Source of the DNA: a virus
Reading direction: 5' to 3' (one strand)
DNA: 19,601 bases
IMG/VR virus record: IMGVR_UViG_3300045988_015272
Location: 1 to 19,601 of that record
In this document: piece after piece, positions 2,870-19,601 of the stretch
Layout of the letters: the number at the start of each line of letters is the position of its first letter
Position numbering within the stretch: the stretch's first letter is position 1
The notes under the pieces: model-generated
The model's input: the letters and a program-made list of their open reading frames with translations, nothing else
Told to the model about the DNA's origin: nothing
The model's database searches: none
Program-made: the position numbers and the translations under genes

Positions 2870-3835
2870 ATGTCCCGTAGCCGGAATCAAAAGCATGTCA
2901 AGGCACGTCAAGCGGCGCAAGCACGCGCCGCACGCAATATCAAACAACTTGGCTCTTACTCCCGCTCGAATCTCGCAAAAACCGCCGATAAACAATTGGT
3001 CAATATCGCAAAAACCTTGGGCAAAGAGTGGGAGCGGCAGAAGAGACAGGCCATAGCGGAAGCGAAAAGCACGCCATACCATGCCACCGCCGTTGAAAAG
3101 CCGACGAAAAAAGACATTATGTTTGCCCAACGCACGCCCATCACGAATGCTCAGATCGAAGCGGAACCGGTGGCGAAACGGCGCAAGCTATTGCGGCAGC
3201 AGCAGCGTAAAATCAATGCGGCACGACGGAAAATCAACGAATGGAACAAGGCGCAGGCAATGCCGCAACGCAGTGTGTATGACCAGCGTATATCCGAGAT
3301 CACCGGCACTACCGGTGAGGGTTTCGGACGCACTCAGATCATCCCGTCAAAGCTCACTGATTTTTTGCAGATGACCAACGTATTGAGTGATGAAGCATTC
3401 GTGCGCTCCCAATTGGAGAGCGGTCACCGTAAGGAGCTGCTTGAGCAAATGCATGATGCAGCCGAAATCTTAGGATTGCGCACCGAACAGAAACGCAAGT
3501 CTAAAAGACAGGGGACGGGCAAAAAGAGTACAGACCTGTACGGTGAGCACGAGTGGCCGTCCTATATGAGTCGCGGACGTTACGAAGTGTTCGAAAAAAT
3601 CTTGGCAACCTCACTCGGTTCGAAACGATTGAAACGATTCCGTCAACTATCCGCAGCGCAAAAGAGAGCGTTTATCGAACAGACGGACGCCCCCCGAATC
3701 GTGTTCGATTGGACGGTGTATGACCCCGTTCGACACGGTTTCACGTCGATTTTCAAGGGCAGCAGTGAGGGCTATCAGCGCTCAAGACGGCAATTTGACC
3801 GGTGGATGTCGGAAGCTGGCGCACTGGAAAAGTAG
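2870..3835 (+). CDS. Putative terminal protein (321 aa, very basic)
   Basis: Lies immediately upstream of, and abutting, the protein-primed-type polymerase gene, which is the phi29 gene 3/gene 2 arrangement. It is K/R-rich (e.g. KRRKLLRQQQRKINAARRKINEWNK). AAGAGG RBS lies 8 nt before ATG 2870; the track start at 2861 is GTG. The call is by synteny only. Confidence 0.45.
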   Translation: MSRSRNQKHVKARQAAQARAARNIKQLGSYSRSNLAKTADKQLVNIAKTLGKEWERQKRQAIAEAKSTPYHATAVEKPTKKDIMFAQRTPITNAQIEAEPVAKRRKLLRQQQRKINAARRKINEWNKAQAMPQRSVYDQRISEITGTTGEGFGRTQIIPSKLTDFLQMTNVLSDEAFVRSQLESGHRKELLEQMHDAAEILGLRTEQKRKSKRQGTGKKSTDLYGEHEWPSYMSRGRYEVFEKILATSLGSKRLKRFRQLSAAQKRAFIEQTDAPRIVFDWTVYDPVRHGFTSIFKGSSEGYQRSRRQFDRWMSEAGALEK

Positions 3836-3864
3836 CGGTCAGCAACAAAGGGAAGTTATATACT

Positions 3865-5316
3865 ATGACAGTGAGTGATAATAGGGTGGGATTATGGTGC
3901 GCGGATAACGTCATACGCTGCACGGACGGCACCGTGCTGCGTGACGTTATCCAACCTAACCGTCTTTTGGCGTCCATCATGGCGGGAGGTAAACTCACTG
4001 TCTACGTGAGCAACCCCGACATTTTAGACCCGTTTATCGCACATGTCGTACACTCGCTCCCTCACGATGAGCATAATGCGAATTTGAGCTGGGATGCCAT
4101 CGTTTCCAAAAAGGGCAAGTTTTTTAGTTTTACGGTGCGTATCGACCGTGAGAATTCCGCACGGTTTTTCGATATTTCGAATCTTTTGCGAGAAAACTGC
4201 AAGCTTACCATGAACGATACTCAACTGCTCAACATATTACGTGAGTATGATCATCGCGGCCTATGCAAGATCACCGCAGGTGGGGCGAGTATGGAAGCGT
4301 TCGCGTCCGGCGAGTGGAAATGGTATTACGACAAATTCCCACAATTGGAATCGGACGCCAAAAAATCATTGCATGACGCCTATATCGGCGGATTCATGGT
4401 TTCGAAAGAGGGGGCATACGGTAAGGCTATTGACGTTGACTGCAATAGCATGTATCCGAGCATATTGCGGGACGAATGGCTCCCATGGGGGCTACCTGAA
4501 TCATATGACGGTGCGTATGTGCAGGATGATGATATGCCGTTGCATTGCGACGAATTGACATTTCGTGCCGAACTCAAACCAAACGGATACCCTTTTTTGC
4601 TCGACAATCGTAGCGTCTATGGACTGAATCGCCTCACCAGCACTAGGGGGTATGTGACAAGAGTATTGACTGACATTGACCAAAAACTGCTCTGCGAGAA
4701 TTACGAAGTGAGCATATACAAGCATGCGCGGGGGTGGAAGTTCCGGCAAAGCAAGGGGTTTTTTAGATCGTTCGTCGACGAATGGGGGGACTTGAAGCAG
4801 AAGGCGACGGGCGAAAAACGACAAACGGCCAAACTGGTCATGAATGCTTTAGTGGGGAAAATGGCAAGTCTACCCAAAGGTGCCGTCATGCTCCCCATGT
4901 CAAAAGACGGCATAACCCTTGACTGGAATATCGCACGACGCGAAGAATCGAATCTGAAAACCGACTACCTCCCCATACCCGTATGGGTCAACGCCTATGC
5001 CCGTCGCAAACTCATGGACGTCTGCCATGCCAATTCCGATAGGTTGCTGTATGCCAATACGGACGGGTGCATCCTATCCGGCTGGGAGCCGGTGGACTCA
5101 TGTGAAATCCACCCTACCGAGCTGGGCAAGTGGAAAATCGCAGCCCGATACGAAAAACTGACCATACTTGGAATGAACCGATATCAGGGGTGGAAGGATG
5201 ATGGGGACGTTGATATCTGCATGGCCGGAAGCCAATTTACGCAGCCCATCCCTTACGATCGGTTTCGTCATGGCGTGCAAGTCATGGACGATTACGGGAC
5301 AATGGTTATGCTATAA
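3865..5316 (+). CDS. Family-B DNA polymerase, protein-primed (phi29 gp2-like)
   Basis: Motif A is DVDCNSMYP, motif B is KLVMNALVGK and motif C is YANTDG. The blocks ITAGGAS and DAYIGGF align by eye with phi29 MTAGSDS and YAYRGGF. The A-to-B and B-to-C spacers have phi29-like length, consistent with TPR1/TPR2. ATG 3865 (AAAGGGAAG RBS) is preferred to ATG 3802, which has no RBS and overlaps the upstream gene. Confidence 0.9.
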   Translation: MTVSDNRVGLWCADNVIRCTDGTVLRDVIQPNRLLASIMAGGKLTVYVSNPDILDPFIAHVVHSLPHDEHNANLSWDAIVSKKGKFFSFTVRIDRENSARFFDISNLLRENCKLTMNDTQLLNILREYDHRGLCKITAGGASMEAFASGEWKWYYDKFPQLESDAKKSLHDAYIGGFMVSKEGAYGKAIDVDCNSMYPSILRDEWLPWGLPESYDGAYVQDDDMPLHCDELTFRAELKPNGYPFLLDNRSVYGLNRLTSTRGYVTRVLTDIDQKLLCENYEVSIYKHARGWKFRQSKGFFRSFVDEWGDLKQKATGEKRQTAKLVMNALVGKMASLPKGAVMLPMSKDGITLDWNIARREESNLKTDYLPIPVWVNAYARRKLMDVCHANSDRLLYANTDGCILSGWEPVDSCEIHPTELGKWKIAARYEKLTILGMNRYQGWKDDGDVDICMAGSQFTQPIPYDRFRHGVQVMDDYGTMVML

Positions 5317-5317
5317 T
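5309..5317 (+). promoter_or_regulatory. Extended -10 promoter (TGcTATAAT) overlapping the polymerase stop codon
   Basis: Exact TGnTATAAT. The predicted transcription start is about 5323-5325, at the base of the long-range helix described for the ncRNA. Confidence 0.55.
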
Positions 5318-5322
5318 AGTTG

Positions 5323-5491
5323 TGTCTTGTGAGCGTCGATTTTCGACTGGGAGCAACATAGGTTGGACTGCCACGGCTGAGAATGCCGCCGACCATGGAA
5401 TCACTATCGTGGCGGTAGTGCCCTACGATCATCACTTTTGCGCTCCGATAGGACGATTCAGACCCTCCGTGATTGGAGGGTCATTTTATTT
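5323..5491 (+). ncRNA. Candidate structured small RNA (~170 nt), proposed phi29-type packaging RNA (pRNA)
   Basis: The 230-nt gap has no RBS-led ORF and is bounded by a promoter (5309-5317) and an intrinsic terminator (5461-5491). Hand-folded helices are as follows. The 5'/3' helix pairs 5324-5335 with 5441-5454 (12 bp, 2 GU, 2-nt bulge). The C/E-like arm pairs 5361-5366 with 5389-5394 and 5374-5377 with 5385-5388, leaving a 5' bulge ACUGCCA. The D-like hairpin pairs 5402-5408 with 5414-5420 and has loop GUGGC, which is complementary to bulge GCCA(C). Confidence 0.5.
5461..5491 (+). terminator. Intrinsic terminator (8-bp GC-rich stem, loop GTGATT, then ATTTTATTT)
   Basis: GACCCTCC (5461-5468) pairs with GGAGGGTC (5475-5482) and is followed by a U-rich tract. 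Confidence 0.7.
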
Positions 5492-5502
5492 CCCCCGCAG
5501 CA

Positions 5503-5511
5503 TGATATAAT
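5503..5511 (+). promoter_or_regulatory. Late (morphogenesis) promoter, extended -10 (TGaTATAAT)
   Basis: Exact TGnTATAAT 36 nt upstream of the scaffold gene and directly after the terminator. Confidence 0.55.
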
Positions 5512-5546
5512 TTTGGTGGAAATATTACCTATCGTAAGGAGCTTGC

Positions 5547-5828
5547 ATGGCAGACCCAAACAATGAGAGCGACGAAAACACCACCCCGCCGCCCACTGAA
5601 GAAGAGAAGCAGACTGAAACCGTCGATGACGAAATCAAGCCGAAAGAGCCTGAGCAGGAACCGGAACCGTCCGAACCGGATGTGAGCGCGCGACTTGACT
5701 CGATCGAAAAGGAATTGGCCGCATTGAAAGCCATGATGGACACGCTCGGATATACCGACCCCGCCCCGTCCGACAATGACGGTGACGATGATGAAACGCA
5801 AGAGTCCATCGAAGATTTGTTCGACTAA
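5547..5828 (+). CDS. Putative scaffolding protein (93 aa, highly acidic, helical core)
   Basis: Lies immediately upstream of the major capsid gene, like phi29 gp7, and is similar in size. The termini are D/E/P-rich around a central LDSIEKELAALKAMMDTL helix. AAGGAG RBS. Confidence 0.6.
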   Translation: MADPNNESDENTTPPPTEEEKQTETVDDEIKPKEPEQEPEPSEPDVSARLDSIEKELAALKAMMDTLGYTDPAPSDNDGDDDETQESIEDLFD

Positions 5829-5849: not shown

Positions 5850-7565
5850 ATGTCTGATATTCGACCATTGGCCGGCAAGGGTGACGTTGAGATCTTCAAC
5901 GCCGTCCGAAACGCCACGTCCCCCCAGTTTCAGGTGCGTATCCCAAGCGCCACACAAGGCAATATTCGCAATGCGGTGGATACCATGCGCAATTTTCCGT
6001 ATTTGCGCGACGAATTCACGGGGGTACTTATCCAGCGTTTGATCGGCCTGTACATCCAGCATGCAGACTGGGATGACCCGCTCAAGCTGATCGGCTCCCC
6101 CCGCACCTTGAAGCGTTACGGCAGCACTTATGAACAGGCCGCGGTTGGTCTTGTCAAGGCACGCACCCGTAATTTTAACAAGGAGTACCTTGGTGATGAC
6201 GTTTACGGACGTTACTCGCTGCCGACTGCTTCCGTATTCCACCCCCTTACTTTTGATCATTATTATCCGGTCACCATCCCGGAAGATGCGCTGCTTACAG
6301 CGTTCGACGGCGAAAGCGGCATGGCGGATTATATCGCGGAAATCATGAACGCGCCGATCTTGTCTGACCGTAATGATATGTACCTGATGAAGACTCAGTG
6401 CTTCGCCGAGTATGCTCGAAAGGGCGGTTTTTATCGAGTCCACACTCCCGACGTCGGTAAGGCCGACTCCACTGAAGCGGACGCCAAGGGATTGTTGCGT
6501 CTTATCCAGCAGGTGGCGAACGAATTGAAAGCATCGCCAATGTCGGCCATGCCACGATATAACGCCATGAGCTGGGTTACCCCATGGCGCGATTCGGAAG
6601 CCATTCTGTTCGCAACCCCGCAGGTGATCGCCGCGCTTAACGTGGAAGCATTGGCCGCAGCATTTAACATTGACAAGGTCAACGTGCCGTACCGTATTAT
6701 CCCCATTCCGGAAGACATGTTCGGCATTGGCGGTGCCGGTGGCAAGGTGCAGGCCGTCCTAACCACCGAAGATTTCTTCTTCTGCTGGGATGAAATGCTC
6801 GAAACCACCAATAGCCCCGTGAATCCGATTGACGGCACGCGCAACATCTTCTACAAGCACCGCGGCTCCATCACTCCTAACCCGTTTGCGAATGCCGTAC
6901 TGTTTTGGACGGGCGAAGGCTCCTCTGAGTCCGTGACGTTGCCGGATACGCTCACTACGAGCAAGCCGGAATTTACGCTGCGCGTACGCAAGTACGGACA
7001 GTCTGCCATCACCCCCGAAAACGTGTCGCGCGGTGATCTCGTGCAGGTCGAATCTGAGATCACAAGCGCCAACAAGGACACGGCAAGCTTCCAGCCGATC
7101 GGCATTAAGTACGCAGTCGAGGGAGCTTCCTCCCCGTTCACCTCAATCGACAACGGGGGTATTCTGCGCTGCGGTCTCGACGAAACCGCCGAAACGCTTA
7201 AGGTCACTGCTCAGGCAACCTATATCGACCCGGCCCACCCCGAGATTGATCAGACGGTTTCCGCAGCACTGTCCGTGCCGGTTGTCGGCGCTTGGTTGGG
7301 CGGCTGGAAGACGGGAGCCATCGAATCCATTGAGATTCAGGGCGAAAAGACGGTGAAGAACGGCGCACATATCGCGCTCAAGGCGATTGCCACCAAGACG
7401 GACGGCAACACGGCTGACGTGACCAATCTCGCCATGTGGACGGTAGACCAGCACGCGACCATCACCCCTAACGGAGTATTGACCGGCACCGCGGCAGGAG
7501 CGGCCAGCGTCACCGCGAAATTCGCGGGAGCCGTCGGAACGGCACGGATCACCGTCGCCGACTGA
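5850..7565 (+). CDS. Major capsid protein (phi29 gp8-like) with C-terminal Ig-like (Big_2-type) domain
   Basis: Blocks alignable by eye to phi29 gp8: VEIFNAVRNA vs YDIVNAIRNS, EDALLTAF vs DDSLKTAF, LAAAFNIDK vs LAKAFNMNR, and PFANAVLFWTG vs RFANAVAFVSG. The C-terminus (HIALKAIATKTDGNTADVTNLAMWTV..ITPNGVLTGTAAGAASVTAKFAG) is typical of a Big_2 domain. Confidence 0.9.
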   Translation: MSDIRPLAGKGDVEIFNAVRNATSPQFQVRIPSATQGNIRNAVDTMRNFPYLRDEFTGVLIQRLIGLYIQHADWDDPLKLIGSPRTLKRYGSTYEQAAVGLVKARTRNFNKEYLGDDVYGRYSLPTASVFHPLTFDHYYPVTIPEDALLTAFDGESGMADYIAEIMNAPILSDRNDMYLMKTQCFAEYARKGGFYRVHTPDVGKADSTEADAKGLLRLIQQVANELKASPMSAMPRYNAMSWVTPWRDSEAILFATPQVIAALNVEALAAAFNIDKVNVPYRIIPIPEDMFGIGGAGGKVQAVLTTEDFFFCWDEMLETTNSPVNPIDGTRNIFYKHRGSITPNPFANAVLFWTGEGSSESVTLPDTLTTSKPEFTLRVRKYGQSAITPENVSRGDLVQVESEITSANKDTASFQPIGIKYAVEGASSPFTSIDNGGILRCGLDETAETLKVTAQATYIDPAHPEIDQTVSAALSVPVVGAWLGGWKTGAIESIEIQGEKTVKNGAHIALKAIATKTDGNTADVTNLAMWTVDQHATITPNGVLTGTAAGAASVTAKFAGAVGTARITVAD

Positions 7566-9923: not shown

Positions 9924-9935
9924 AGGACGGTGACT

Positions 9936-10877
9936 ATGGGTAAACGCAATAATGCACGCAAGGCCGCGCATTGGGATAATCAGAGCGTGCTCGGCAGCAT
10001 GTGGGGCAATCTTAATCTGCCAGAAATGCGGCAGAGTCTCAGAATTAACCAGTACATGAAGCTTATCGAAATGTTGGCCGTATCACGTTTCAAATGGATT
10101 AACCTCCCCCCGTATATTGACGAAAGATATCTGGAATTGACGCTTTTTGAAAACGGTCTCGCCCTCTTTTTCCCCGACAAGCGTAAGGGCGTGAACCGTT
10201 TTATGGTCACTTCAGGCAATATCGGGGGGGTAAACAACTATAACAATCCAACCAGCTTCCAACCGGTTGCGACAAGTTATTCTCACCCGCAGATCGGGAG
10301 CAAGGAATGCGTGCCTATTTGGGATAACCAGCTGCGTTGCACCATGATCGACGTTATGTGGAATTATGCGACGCGATTGGCTATCGCAGACCGTGCGCTG
10401 GACGTAAATCTTGACAATATTAGCGTTCCGTTGATTATCGCCACGTCCGAAACCAACAAGCTCACCGCCCAAAATTTGATGAAGGCGCGTGAAGATGGCG
10501 ACCCCTATATTTACACATACGACTCGGCGGACATCACCGGAATGTTCCAGACATTCCCCAACGTCACCCCCTTTTTGGCTGATAAGATCATCACCACCAA
10601 AACGCAGATATGGAACGAATTGGTCAACTATTTAGGTATCGACAATAGCACCACCGAAAAAAAAGAACGATTGCTTGAAAGCGAAGTGACGGCAGGCAAT
10701 AGCCGTACGAACGTTTTCCGCCTAAGCTATCTTAAAGCAAGACAGCAGGCGTGCGATACGATTAACCGGTTGTGGCCGCAAATGGCCGACTCGGGATACC
10801 CTATCGGAATCGAATGGAACGACACCACGTCCGGCGGCTTATTGGACGTGGACGGAAACAAAGAGGAGGAAGAATAA
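9936..10877 (+). CDS. Portal / upper collar connector protein (phi29 gp10-like)
   Basis: LAVSRFKWINLPPYIDERYLELTLFENG matches [28 protein letters not shown] in phi29 gp10, and TKTQIWNELVNYLGIDNSTTEKKERLLESEV matches [33 protein letters not shown]. ATG 9936 is preferred to the GTG at 9930. Confidence 0.9.
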   Translation: MGKRNNARKAAHWDNQSVLGSMWGNLNLPEMRQSLRINQYMKLIEMLAVSRFKWINLPPYIDERYLELTLFENGLALFFPDKRKGVNRFMVTSGNIGGVNNYNNPTSFQPVATSYSHPQIGSKECVPIWDNQLRCTMIDVMWNYATRLAIADRALDVNLDNISVPLIIATSETNKLTAQNLMKAREDGDPYIYTYDSADITGMFQTFPNVTPFLADKIITTKTQIWNELVNYLGIDNSTTEKKERLLESEVTAGNSRTNVFRLSYLKARQQACDTINRLWPQMADSGYPIGIEWNDTTSGGLLDVDGNKEEEE

Positions 10878-15705: not shown

Positions 15706-16908
15706 ACTTTTACGCAATGGATTGACCAGACGAAAAACCGTTTTTGGGACATGGACGGCGCGTATGGCGCGCAATGCTGGGACTTATGGGCCAAGTACAG
15801 TATGGACATGTACGGCATGTCCATTCAGGATTGCATAACCCCTACCGGCTATGCAGGAGGATTGTACACCGCATACCCCGTATCCGCACGGTGCGAACAA
15901 GTGTACGAACGGATTCCAGCAAACGGATACTCGCCAGTGGCTGGGGATGTGGCAATATGGGGGTACGGCGCGTACACCCCCTACACGCATGTCGCCATAG
16001 TCGCGGGAGACGGCGTAAAAGATGGCAGAATCTACGTGATCACGCAAAATCCTGACGCCAGCGCACTTAAATGGTTCCCGATCGACGGACTTTTAGGCTA
16101 TCTGCATCCCCGTACCATGTCTAAGCCGGACGTGGACAATCCCACCGGTGACAACAATCAAGGGAACCCCGACACCGCGCGCGGGGGAGCGTGGATACAC
16201 TGGCAGGGCGACAATCTCTACTTGCATGAAACCGACAACAGCGGTGCAAGGGCGCGTATTTTCTACAAAACCACCGCGAACAATTTTTCCGAAAAAGCGT
16301 CACAAGGTCAACCGTCCGATAGTAACGGTCAGGCGCACCCGTCAACCTCAGTGTCACCGGAAAACTCTTACGCTTTATACGTGGTCGGCACGGTGGAAGC
16401 CGGTTTACGGTGGGATGCAGTGGAAGCGGCCAATCTACAGGGTATCGGCATAGCTCAATGGAGTTTCGGTAGACGTTTGCAAGTGTTGAATGCGATGAAA
16501 TCTGCCGACCCGACCGGCTATGCAACATTCAAAACCTCAGCACCGCAGATCGCGGCACTCATGGAGAGCGGGGGAGATTTTACACGAACCCTGACACAAA
16601 CGGAAGCGTCCGCATTCAAGACGTGGGCGGCACGTAGTGAATCGCATGAGGGACAACGCAAGCAGTTCGCGGAAGATTACGCCGGATATCCACAAGAATA
16701 CGATGATGATAAAATGCAAATCTTGTGGGTGACCGCATATCACCAGTCACCCGCTAACGCGCTCAAAGTGCCGAAAGCGTCGAATCTTGCACAGCTCAAA
16801 ACCAATATTTTGAGCACGTATCCATTCCAACCATATACAAGTCGATACAATCAAGCATATTCACTATTGTCCGTATGGGATGGAAAATCGAATCCACCCG
16901 CATTCTAA
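15697..16908 (+). CDS. Tail-associated peptidoglycan hydrolase: N-terminal CHAP plus C-terminal phage tail lysozyme-like domain (phi29 gp13 analogue)
   Basis: CHAP signature is DMDGAYGAQCWDLW..YTHVAIV. The C-terminal QGIGIAQWSFGRR and WVTAYHQSPANA resemble phi29 gp13 N-domain GFGLVQWTPAS and FLASYERPANP. The position after the appendage genes matches gp13. Confidence 0.85.
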   Translation: MAITFTQWIDQTKNRFWDMDGAYGAQCWDLWAKYSMDMYGMSIQDCITPTGYAGGLYTAYPVSARCEQVYERIPANGYSPVAGDVAIWGYGAYTPYTHVAIVAGDGVKDGRIYVITQNPDASALKWFPIDGLLGYLHPRTMSKPDVDNPTGDNNQGNPDTARGGAWIHWQGDNLYLHETDNSGARARIFYKTTANNFSEKASQGQPSDSNGQAHPSTSVSPENSYALYVVGTVEAGLRWDAVEAANLQGIGIAQWSFGRRLQVLNAMKSADPTGYATFKTSAPQIAALMESGGDFTRTLTQTEASAFKTWAARSESHEGQRKQFAEDYAGYPQEYDDDKMQILWVTAYHQSPANALKVPKASNLAQLKTNILSTYPFQPYTSRYNQAYSLLSVWDGKSNPPAF

Positions 16909-17029: not shown

Positions 17030-18097
17030 ATGGCGTTACAGACATTGGCCGAAGATGACTACTACGACTTGCATGATCTGCTCACCCGTAACGCGCCGTG
17101 GAATTTTGTGATCGGGGCGCGTGGACTTGGCAAGACTTTTGCCGCAAAACGATACGGCATCAAAGAGTATATTAAGAACGGCCATGAATTTATTTATCTG
17201 CGTCGCACTGATGTGGAACAACACCGCAAGGAAACGTTTTTCAAGGACATTCAAGAATTTTTCCCCTCCTATGAATTTCGCGTGAATGGCGAAAAAGGGC
17301 AGATTCATAAGACGTCATGGGATGAGAAAGATTGGCGCACATGCTGCTATTTCATCGCACTATCGCAGGCAGGCGGATTGAAATCGGTAGCCTACCCTAA
17401 AGTTCATTTGATTATTTTCGATGAAATCTTTCCCGACAACCTACGATTTTTGAGCAATGAGGTAAACAGTTTTAGCGAATTTTACAATACTGTTGACCGT
17501 TGGCAAGATAGGACAAAAGTGCTGTTTTTGTCCAACGCAGTGCAAAAGGCTAATCCTTATTTCGCGAAATACCGGTTGGACATTGGCGCTCAGCAAGCCA
17601 ACCAGCAGCAATATAAGTTGTATTGTGGGGGGTTCGTGTGTCTCGAATTGGCTGATTACGGCGGATTCAGCGCGAAAGTCGCCAAGTCAAAGTTCGGACG
17701 GTTCCTTGAGCAGTACGACGTCGACTATGCCGACTATGCAATACGTAACAAATTCCGTGACGAATCGGACACGCTGCTAGCCCCCATCCCTACAGACGGA
17801 GAATTGTCCTACGTCCTAGACACTACCGATTATGCGCGTTTCGGTATATGGGTGAGTGTTTCCGAGCGTGACGGGCACGTTTCACAATATGTTTCACGAC
17901 GTATCCCGAAAGACAATACTCGCCCCGTCTACACGCTAGACCCCAATCACGTTGACGAAAAAACATGGTACGTCAAAAAATCAGATGATATCATACGGCG
18001 ACTCACCACCGGCTACCGACTGGGCAAGATAAGATTTGATGATTCACAGGTCAAGGCCGATTTTGGGTTGATCATTGGCGAACTGTTAGGAAAATAG
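17030..18097 (+). CDS. DNA encapsidation (packaging) ATPase, phi29 gp16-like
   Basis: Walker A is NFVIGARGLGKT near the N-terminus and Walker B is HLIIFDE. Size (355 aa) and motif layout match gp16-family ATPases. Strong AGGAGG RBS. Confidence 0.9.
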   Translation: MALQTLAEDDYYDLHDLLTRNAPWNFVIGARGLGKTFAAKRYGIKEYIKNGHEFIYLRRTDVEQHRKETFFKDIQEFFPSYEFRVNGEKGQIHKTSWDEKDWRTCCYFIALSQAGGLKSVAYPKVHLIIFDEIFPDNLRFLSNEVNSFSEFYNTVDRWQDRTKVLFLSNAVQKANPYFAKYRLDIGAQQANQQQYKLYCGGFVCLELADYGGFSAKVAKSKFGRFLEQYDVDYADYAIRNKFRDESDTLLAPIPTDGELSYVLDTTDYARFGIWVSVSERDGHVSQYVSRRIPKDNTRPVYTLDPNHVDEKTWYVKKSDDIIRRLTTGYRLGKIRFDDSQVKADFGLIIGELLGK

Positions 18098-19160: not shown

Positions 19161-19176
19161 ATTGACCGCATAAAAT

Positions 19177-19205
19177 AAGCCCCTAGGTTACTCACCTAGG
19201 GGCTT
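19177..19205. terminator. Bidirectional intrinsic terminator between convergent genes
   Basis: An 11-bp stem pairs AAGCCCCTAGG (19177-19187) with CCTAGGGGCTT (19195-19205), with a 7-nt loop. T-rich tracts lie on both strands. It sits between the endolysin gene (+) and 19212..19457 (-). Confidence 0.75.
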
Positions 19206-19240
19206 TATTTATCACCACGTCCGAGCAAACGCTTCCATAT
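19177..19240. repeat. Internal third copy of the ITR inner segment (direct repeat of 19522-19587)
   Basis: CCTAGGGGCTTTATTTATCACC at 19195-19216 is 22/22 identical to 19540-19561. The hairpin arm CCCCTAGG at 19180-19187 equals 19525-19532, and AACGCTTC at 19228-19235 equals 19577-19584. Confidence 0.8.
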
Positions 19241-19501: not shown

Positions 19502-19524
19502 CAAACAAAAACACATATAAAAAC

Positions 19525-19601
19525 CCCCTAGGCAATAAACCTAGGGGCTTTATTTATCACCTATCACGCATTCTCGAACGCTTCAATAAAATCATCATTC
19601 G
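19525..19601. repeat. Right inverted terminal repeat (77 bp perfect)
   Basis: Exact reverse complement of 1-77. Contains the same CCCCTAGG-N7-CCTAGGGG hairpin. Confidence 0.95.

Follow-up and report, generated by a model that had tools for sequence, protein, structure and literature searches.

The 19,601-nucleotide (nt) stretch of IMG/VR record IMGVR_UViG_3300045988_015272, here called the window, is a phi29-like podophage genome from gut Bifidobacterium, and the gap between its DNA polymerase gene and its capsid module holds a conserved structured RNA that is a candidate prohead/packaging RNA (pRNA). The gap (5317-5546, 230 nt) extends from the polymerase gene to a small open reading frame (ORF) and is the largest internal stretch without a long ORF on the + strand, in agreement with an earlier note on this DNA that had called it the only large non-coding gap. 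The genes and signals at the locus, with the further copies of its promoter box, are:

3802-5316, + strand: protein-primed type-B DNA polymerase gene (DNA_pol_B_2, 5.4e-27)
5309-5317, + strand: P1, an extended -10 promoter, TGcTATAAT (TGCTATAAT), overlapping the polymerase stop codon
5324-5454, + strand: structured domain of ~131 nt
5461-5491, + strand: intrinsic terminator, with a stem at 5461-5482 (9 pairs, 6 of them G-C), a 4-nt loop and the tail ATTTTATTT
5503-5511, + strand: P2, an extended -10 promoter, TGaTATAAT (TGATATAAT), nearly invariant in relatives
5547-5828: small ORF upstream of the capsid gene
5850-7565: phi29-type major capsid protein gene (Phi29_MCP, 3.5e-57)
125, 650, 2791, 5309, 5503 and 16913, + strand: six exact TGNTATAAT extended -10 boxes

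The two promoters and the terminator stand exactly where the earlier note had read them, and both promoters are conserved across all relatives, P1 in the form TGYTATRAT. Transcription from P1 is predicted to start near G5324, the first base of the helix that closes the domain (helix A). The TGNTATAAT box is found six times in the window, always on the + strand, against an expectation of 0.83, and six copies were reached in 0/200 shuffles. Because the box is enriched, restricted to the + strand and mostly placed directly upstream of a + strand ORF, the ATPase gene included, it can be taken as the promoter type of the phage, and the six copies probably form its promoter set. P2 is predicted to serve the small ORF and the capsid gene. 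The terminator stem has compensatory changes at three pairs (e.g., CG 39 / UA 16 and GC 30 / CG 17). A consensus promoter and a terminator, both present and conserved, combined with the enrichment of the promoter box, define a predicted transcription unit, from which a discrete non-coding RNA of ~165 nt would be made, starting at P1 (near 5324) and ending at the terminator (~5490).

A structured element that immediately precedes a terminator and the late genes could also be a cis-acting leader or attenuator, in which transcripts from P1, or those reading through from the polymerase operon, control termination at 5461-5491 and capsid expression in a put-like or riboswitch-like manner. Put elements, such as those of HK022, are two stem-loops that act on the transcribing polymerase, and the genes downstream of them need read-through. 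The window RNA is like the HK022 put in being a structured RNA just past a phage promoter and upstream of a terminator, but unlike it in having an independent promoter after the terminator and in being a closed domain with self-complementary loops. As the conserved consensus P2 follows 12 nt past the U tract, the late genes are independent of read-through. There is no conserved terminator/antiterminator alternative, the terminator stem covarying by itself, and the 5'/3' closing helix delimits a domain complete in itself, with its end 6 nt short of the terminator. Additionally, Rfam scans of the window and of the region 5250-5600 returned no regulatory RNA, riboswitch or leader family; weak matches to mir-223, PAGEV and CssrB were attributed to terminator hairpins or chance. 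A leader is an improbable description of the element.

Region 5317-5546 is non-coding as judged from the pattern of change among relatives. The ORF at 5322-5510 (62 amino acids, GTG start), whose translation the earlier note had named as a point that would speak against an RNA, is open in the window and ~10 close relatives. Conservation of this reading frame was looked for among 62 relatives and not found, with ~50 of the 62 reaching a stop within 3-30 codons through indels that are not multiples of three, and it is because the ORF is broken in most relatives that the region is considered non-coding. Substitutions track base-pairing and not codon structure. The paired positions include 354 G-U cells, each of which would be a mismatch if the complementary strand were read, and the RNA is therefore read from the + strand. 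A small coding gene, or a fold that arose by chance in an ordinary spacer, could be argued for from the open frame in the window and its closest relatives and from the unexceptional folding energy of the domain (z = -0.9), but with the frame interrupted by such indels, the substitutions following base-pairing and exactly one high-scoring copy of the element in each relative genome, this explanation is counted as refuted. The GenBank records of phages BP1 and BD811P1-3 have no annotation within the polymerase/capsid-module gap, and the element is unannotated in all deposited relatives examined.

Because the thermodynamic signal alone is weak, the above-chance evidence for the structure is comparative. 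The locus was gathered from isolates in GenBank, from IMG/VR and from metagenome assemblies of ENA/JGI, with human gut as the label of many, which gave 99 distinct sequences. Two alignments were used, one made with MAFFT (unbiased) and one fitted with a covariance model constructed for this analysis (R1; 134 positions, 39 pairs), which is too sequence-specific, with an effective sequence number of 1.13, and which identifies exactly one high-scoring copy per genome in 99 relatives. Protein searches of IMG/VR for distant relatives (best 80 loci) recovered the same tight clade only, and a single 14-mer scan for relatives was non-specific. The parts of the domain are:

5324-5328, + strand: outer helix A, 5' strand GUCUU, paired with 5450-5454
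5331-5336, + strand: inner helix A, 5' strand GAGCGU, paired with 5440-5445 (99.8-100% paired)
5337-5345 and 5426-5433, + strand: innermost helix A, with two alternative pairings
5349-5351/5421-5423, + strand: junction-closing helix GGG/CCC (100% paired)
5357-5366, + strand: C helix, 5' strand, pairing 5357-5359/5395-5397 and 5361-5366/5389-5394 with A5360 bulged; present in the minimum free energy (MFE) structure
5367-5373, + strand: bulge ACUGCCA on the 5'-strand side, the equivalent of the phi29 CE loop
5374-5388, + strand: E hairpin, stem CGGC/GCCG (5374-5377/5385-5388) and 7-nt loop UGAGAAU (5378-5384)
5389-5397, + strand: C helix, 3' strand CCGACCAUG, unbulged across from the CE bulge
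5402-5420, + strand: D hairpin, 7-bp stem (5402-5408/5414-5420) and loop GUGGC (5409-5413)
5421-5429, + strand: CCC followed by UACGAU, single-stranded and nearly invariant
5440-5454, + strand: helix A, 3' strand, made of GCGCUC (5440-5445), an internal loop (5446-5449) and AGGAC (5450-5454)

Standard pairs account for 96.4% of pair cells in the MAFFT alignment and 98.1% in the model-fitted alignment, compared to 32-50% when the partners are slid by 1-3 columns. Both sides of the pair have changed at 19 pairs (114-115 cells among the 99 sequences), the observed values of all five pairing measures were reached in 0/500 shuffles, and each helix is backed by at least one compensatory pair, so that the compensatory changes the earlier note had proposed to seek in aligned relatives are indeed there. 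The RNAalifold consensus of 21 relatives contains helix A, the GGG/CCC junction helix, the C helix, the E and D hairpins and the terminator. All the helices that the earlier note had drawn by hand are in this consensus, and the junction helix, which it had overlooked, is added to them. When 5324-5454 is folded alone, the MFE structure also holds every one of those helices.

The pairing of the two ends of domain I as helix A is present in the MFE structure and backed by compensatory changes. Its outer segment is 98.6% paired in the model-fitted alignment, with two compensatory pairs (U-A to C-G in 7 sequences); the figure of only 85% on the MAFFT alignment arises because 1-nt shifts misalign the segment. 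In the inner segment, 5335:5441 is G-C in 85 sequences and A-U in 12, 5334:5442 is C-G in 97 and U-A in 1, and 5336:5440 is U-G, U-A or C-G. The closing helix had been proposed as an element of 12 bp with a 2-nt bulge, of which the outer and inner segments covary and the middle pairs, 5329:5449 (42/99) and 5330:5448 (81/99), are not conserved. For the innermost part, the first alternative is a local hairpin (5337-5339/5343-5345, loop UUU) with one compensatory change, G-C to A-U in locus L255, and the second is a long-range pairing (5338-5339/5432-5433 and 5343-5345/5426-5428), also with one compensatory change, U-A to C-G in locus L214. These mutually exclusive pairings may represent a conformational switch or a four-way junction.

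Within the junction, the GGG/CCC helix is changed to GAG/CUC by compensation in L214 and contains a G-U in two other sequences. The C helix has compensatory changes in 6/9 pairs; the composite C/E arm of the earlier note is upheld, with the C helix longer by 3 bp (5357-5359/5395-5397) than first drawn. The E stem is 99.7% paired and has a compensatory CGAC/GUCG in locus L239, while the D stem is 99.9% paired, with 5/7 pairs compensatory and no pair invariant. The domain is thus a junction from which a C/E arm and a D hairpin project, arranged A-C-E-D-A, with all helices covarying. The E loop occurs among relatives as the alleles UGAGAAU, UGAAAAC and, rarely, UGAGAAC, with stem pairing kept, and these alleles may track a protein partner.

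The bases at the 3' end of the CE bulge, GCCA (5370-5373), are complementary to UGGC of the D loop (5410-5413), and this complementarity is kept in relatives. Counted over the sequences, 5370:5413 has 81 G-C, 11 G-U, 6 A-U and 0 unpaired; 5371:5412 is C-G without exception; 5372:5411 has 92 C-G and 6 U-G; and 5373:5410 has 90 A-U. A5370 never occurs together with C5413. The A-U form of 5370:5413 is found in at least four lineages that are not mutual nearest neighbours (BD811P2, within a G-U clade; L255; the L263 group; and L214), which is the covariation between 5370-5374 and 5409-5413 that the earlier note had suggested looking for. Its complementarity of 4-5 nt holds for four pairs, and the fifth, C5374:G5409, would take a base from the E stem. 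An 8-bp alternative helix (5367-5374/5409-5416), possible in the window, was rejected since it is not conserved and breaks where the D stem covaries: the extending pairs 5367:5416 and 5368:5415 become A-C in 13 sequences and C-A in 6, respectively. Because the helix-extending pairs break with D-stem covariation, selection must act on a short loop-loop contact over an intact D hairpin.

The phi29 120-nt domain I was folded with the same tool as the window RNA, and the family used for comparison was RF00044 (Phage_pRNA), from the Bacillus phages phi29, PZA, B103, M2/Nf, SF5 and GA-1 and newer Salasmaviridae. Read 5' to 3', the phi29 fold consists of helix A; 1 nt; a C helix (6+3 bp, one nt bulged on the 5' side); a 5' bulge of 9 nt with AACC as its last bases; an E hairpin (4-bp stem, 6-nt loop); a 3' strand free of bulges; a UUU linker; a D hairpin of 6 bp with a 5-nt loop; and helix A again, with no spacer before it. 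The window RNA consists of helix A; GGG; 5 nt; a C helix (3+6 bp, one nt bulged on the 5' side); a 5' bulge of 7 nt with GCCA as its last bases; an E hairpin (4-bp stem, 7-nt loop); a 3' strand free of bulges; the linker GAAU; a D hairpin of 7 bp with a 5-nt loop; CCC; and helix A without a spacer. The claim of the earlier note that the fold reproduces the pRNA domain plan is borne out by this comparison, as helix order and dimensions match a phi29 fold computed in the same way.

In both RNAs the bases complementary to the D loop, CC/GG among them, are the last four of the bulge and border on the E stem. A 2025 Infernal survey (PMC12670572) describes this location, with CC/GG, as a feature that all pRNAs have in common, and the known pRNA loop pairings are 2-5 bp (PMC4201828); the window RNA has such a 5' C/E bulge, with D-loop complementarity of that length maintained by covariation. 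Known pRNAs share ~12% of their sequence and keep their secondary structure (PMC5066667). Like phi29 pRNA, the window RNA would start ~7 nt past a TGCTATAAT box, the sequence of phi29 promoter A1, and end in a terminator hairpin, and its predicted size is that of the phi29 family (~165-175 nt, with a domain I of ~120-130 nt and a 3' terminator hairpin). The differences are the host (Bifidobacterium, an actinobacterium, versus Bacillus), a helix A longer than that of phi29, a possible extra hairpin, the separate GGG/CCC junction helix, the 5-nt spacer before C and a loop pair of GCCA/UGGC in place of AACC/GGUU.

As in phi29, the encoding phage has a gp10 connector and a gp16 ATPase, present here together with protein-primed replication; both proteins had been recognized in the earlier note and are supported by profile matches:

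9930-10877: gp10-type connector (Phage_connector, 2.2e-39)
17030-18097: gp16-type packaging ATPase (Podovirus_Gp16, 7.6e-46, profile positions 6-319 of 331)

By analogy, the window RNA is taken, with a probability of about 70%, to be a prohead/packaging RNA of a phage lineage with actinobacterial hosts, doing there what pRNA does in phi29. What is observed is the structure, the covariation of the loops and the gene content; the packaging function and the intermolecular pairing would follow the phi29 model. The C/E and D arms would bind the portal vertex of the prohead, and the GCCA of one copy would pair with the UGGC of the next to form an RNA ring around the connector. Helix A would point outward and dock the gp16-type ATPase, which would pump the terminal-protein-capped DNA into the head, and the RNA would depart before tail attachment. 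The 3' terminator hairpin would correspond to the dispensable 'domain II', the position of which it occupies.

Several observations weigh against this assignment. The RF00044 model, the check proposed in the earlier note, has no match at its gathering threshold (100 bits) in the whole window, nor any at E <= 10 in 5250-5600, while phi29 as the positive control scores 145.4 bits. Model R1 found no match in phi29 or in two other actinobacterial phi29-like phages considered below, BadAztec1 and Av-1, and local sequence alignment of the window RNA to phi29 pRNA or the BadAztec RNA was not significant. The gene lies in the polymerase/capsid-module gap and not at the left genome end, where the Bacillus phages have theirs. 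Folding z-scores are -2.1 for the 178-nt segment and the -0.9 given above for the 131-nt domain, a weak thermodynamic signal, and when 5318-5495 is folded, a competing pairing displaces the D hairpin from the MFE structure. The fold of this longer segment, which the earlier note had put forward as a check, thus retains the C/E arm and the terminator in the MFE structure and the closing helix in the centroid only, in comparison to the domain alone, where all helices are present. True covariation is seen at one of the four loop pairs only, 5370:5413, and the pair 5373:5410 is broken in 8/98 sequences. The innermost part of helix A is ambiguous between its two pairings, and the spacer before helix C is 5 nt (AGCAA) compared to 1 nt in phi29. 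Finally, the relatives form one fairly tight clade (capsid protein >=84% identical), and as a result the substitutions are not fully independent.

It should also be noted that the loop covariation fits an intermolecular contact and an intramolecular pseudoknot alike, and a structured phage small RNA (sRNA) with a role other than packaging would use the latter to lock its fold, whether it served as an early-to-late regulator, bound RNA polymerase, acted as a protein sponge or worked in trans. Such a role would suit an RNA at the exact early/late boundary, between two promoters and without a sequence-level link to RF00044, and its conserved single-stranded stretches (the E loop and UACGAU) are possible protein or target sites. 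However, the order and lengths of the helices, the side of the bulge and the placement of the pairing bases agree in each point with the pRNA plan, the phage encodes the gp10/gp16 motor bridged by pRNA in phi29, and the Rfam scans match no regulatory RNA family. The phi29 loop pairing was itself modelled first as intramolecular and later shown to be intermolecular. An sRNA of this kind is an unlikely explanation, albeit one that part of the evidence fits. With no match to RF00044 but the structural and genomic features present, the packaging RNA reading is best phrased as an RNA that probably works like a pRNA, its homology unproven.

Phages of bee-gut B. asteroides, BadAztec1 and BadAargau2, have ATPases 44% identical to that of the window and share its gene order, with a 178-nt gap at the same polymerase/capsid-module locus and a TGCTATAGT box. 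The gap encodes a second structured RNA:

12690-12853 of L245 (BadAztec1), minus strand: BadAztec-type structured RNA, unannotated
~2423-2590 of L279 (BadAargau2): BadAztec-type structured RNA, unannotated

The BadAztec RNA folds strongly (z = -3.2), and the two phages differ in it by two compensatory changes from A-U to G-C. It is like the window RNA in its closing helix (GUGAGCG/CGCUCAC, compared to GUGAGCG...CGCUC in the window), its 3' hairpin and GUGGU, a candidate D loop that it has in common with the window family, and beyond the closing helix the two RNAs are unalignable. Its best local match to phi29 pRNA is the AAACCCGUAUUAAGUUACGCCCAC segment, 19/24 identical to the CE-bulge/E-hairpin of phi29, at the same distance from the 5' end and with compensatory stem differences; 5/2000 shuffles score as well. 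In IMG/VR, this motif is limited to BadAztec1 and three contigs with match positions fitting phi29 and its close relatives. RF00044 has no match on BadAztec1, the pRNA-like fold lies 6 kcal/mol above the MFE, and a search of the BadAztec clade yielded two lineages and two RNA sequences only. The BadAztec RNA suggests, on the thin evidence of two sequences, that in phi29-like phages of Bifidobacterium this locus is home to RNAs of the pRNA type.

A pRNA had already been proposed for a phi29-like phage of an actinobacterial host: in the GenBank record of Actinomyces phage Av-1 (NC_009643, L246), 16295-16402 carries an unverified 'packaging RNA' misc_RNA feature. This segment is at the right genome end and not in the polymerase/capsid gap, and it overlaps ORF C and ORF B, which are annotated on the opposite strand. 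The annotation looks weak, with an MFE of -14.6, z = +0.5 and no RF00044 or R1 match. In other actinobacterial phi29-like phages the polymerase is separated from the capsid module by a small gene, namely a ribbon-helix-helix gene in Mendel, ORF7 in Av-1 (ribbon-helix-helix-like by eye) and a hypothetical protein in Reje; the stretches concerned are 4303-4611 in L246 (Av-1), 4676-5105 in L281 and 3729-4055 in L280, and the gaps that follow are shorter, at 96-172 nt. The left end of Reje has 553 unannotated nt.

The window is a phi29-like podophage of an actinobacterial host, Bifidobacterium, an assignment that follows from its gene content, which also includes a tail knob gene, and its identity to Bifidobacterium phages: 87% to Bifidobacterium phage BP1 and 75-82% to BD811P1-3 and one human faecal contig. 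BP1 and BD811P1-3 are kept in culture on B. pseudocatenulatum and B. dentium. Because inverted terminal repeats are present at both ends, the window is considered a complete linear genome:

1-99 and 19503-19601: inverted terminal repeats, 99 nt, 95% complementary

A palindromic terminator-like element, AAGCCCCTAGG...CCTAGGGGCTT, occurs in three copies near the genome ends (41-88, 19169-19216 and 19515-19557). The connector's N-terminus (window 9930-9970) is strongly basic, MGKRNNARK (MGKRNNARKAAHW). An RKR motif in the basic N-terminus of the phi29 gp10 connector binds pRNA, and the N-terminus of the window connector resembles that motif.

Literature searches for pRNA in Bifidobacterium phages found no report. 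According to a 2024 review, pRNA is at present known only from phi29 and Bacillus phages related to it (PMC11476376), and the 2025 survey, seeded with phi29, GA1 and DLc1, added 12 pRNAs whose phage names, among those consulted, are apparently all Bacillus, and nowhere refers to Bifidobacterium (PMC12670572). As far as these sources extend, they fit the statement of the earlier note that pRNAs are established only for Bacillus phi29 relatives, with the unverified annotation in Av-1 as a caveat. Whether pRNA originated as an RNA-world relic or as a late replacement of a terminase domain has been debated from this narrow group of Bacillus phages (PMC11476376, PMC5066667).

The balance tips toward pRNA being an ancestral or widespread part of phi29-type packaging motors that has diverged past the reach of sequence and covariance models, and not a Bacillus-only component. 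Gut Bifidobacterium phages, the clade of the window and probably the bee-gut BadAztec clade, would then have their own versions, with a different genome position, an interlock of GCCA with UGGC and a helix A of greater length. Few natural RNAs are known to form a homo-oligomeric ring within a molecular motor; pRNA is one of them and is a workhorse of RNA nanotechnology. If the packaging RNA reading is correct, a second, sequence-unrelated pRNA lineage from another bacterial phylum would serve as an independent check on which features a pRNA requires, new modules for junctions and loops would become available, and current homology searches would be missing pRNAs. As hosts and phages are cultivable, whether all phi29-like phages use a packaging RNA would become directly testable. 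The analysis would also annotate a conserved gene that is absent from the deposited annotations of an abundant group of human-gut phages.

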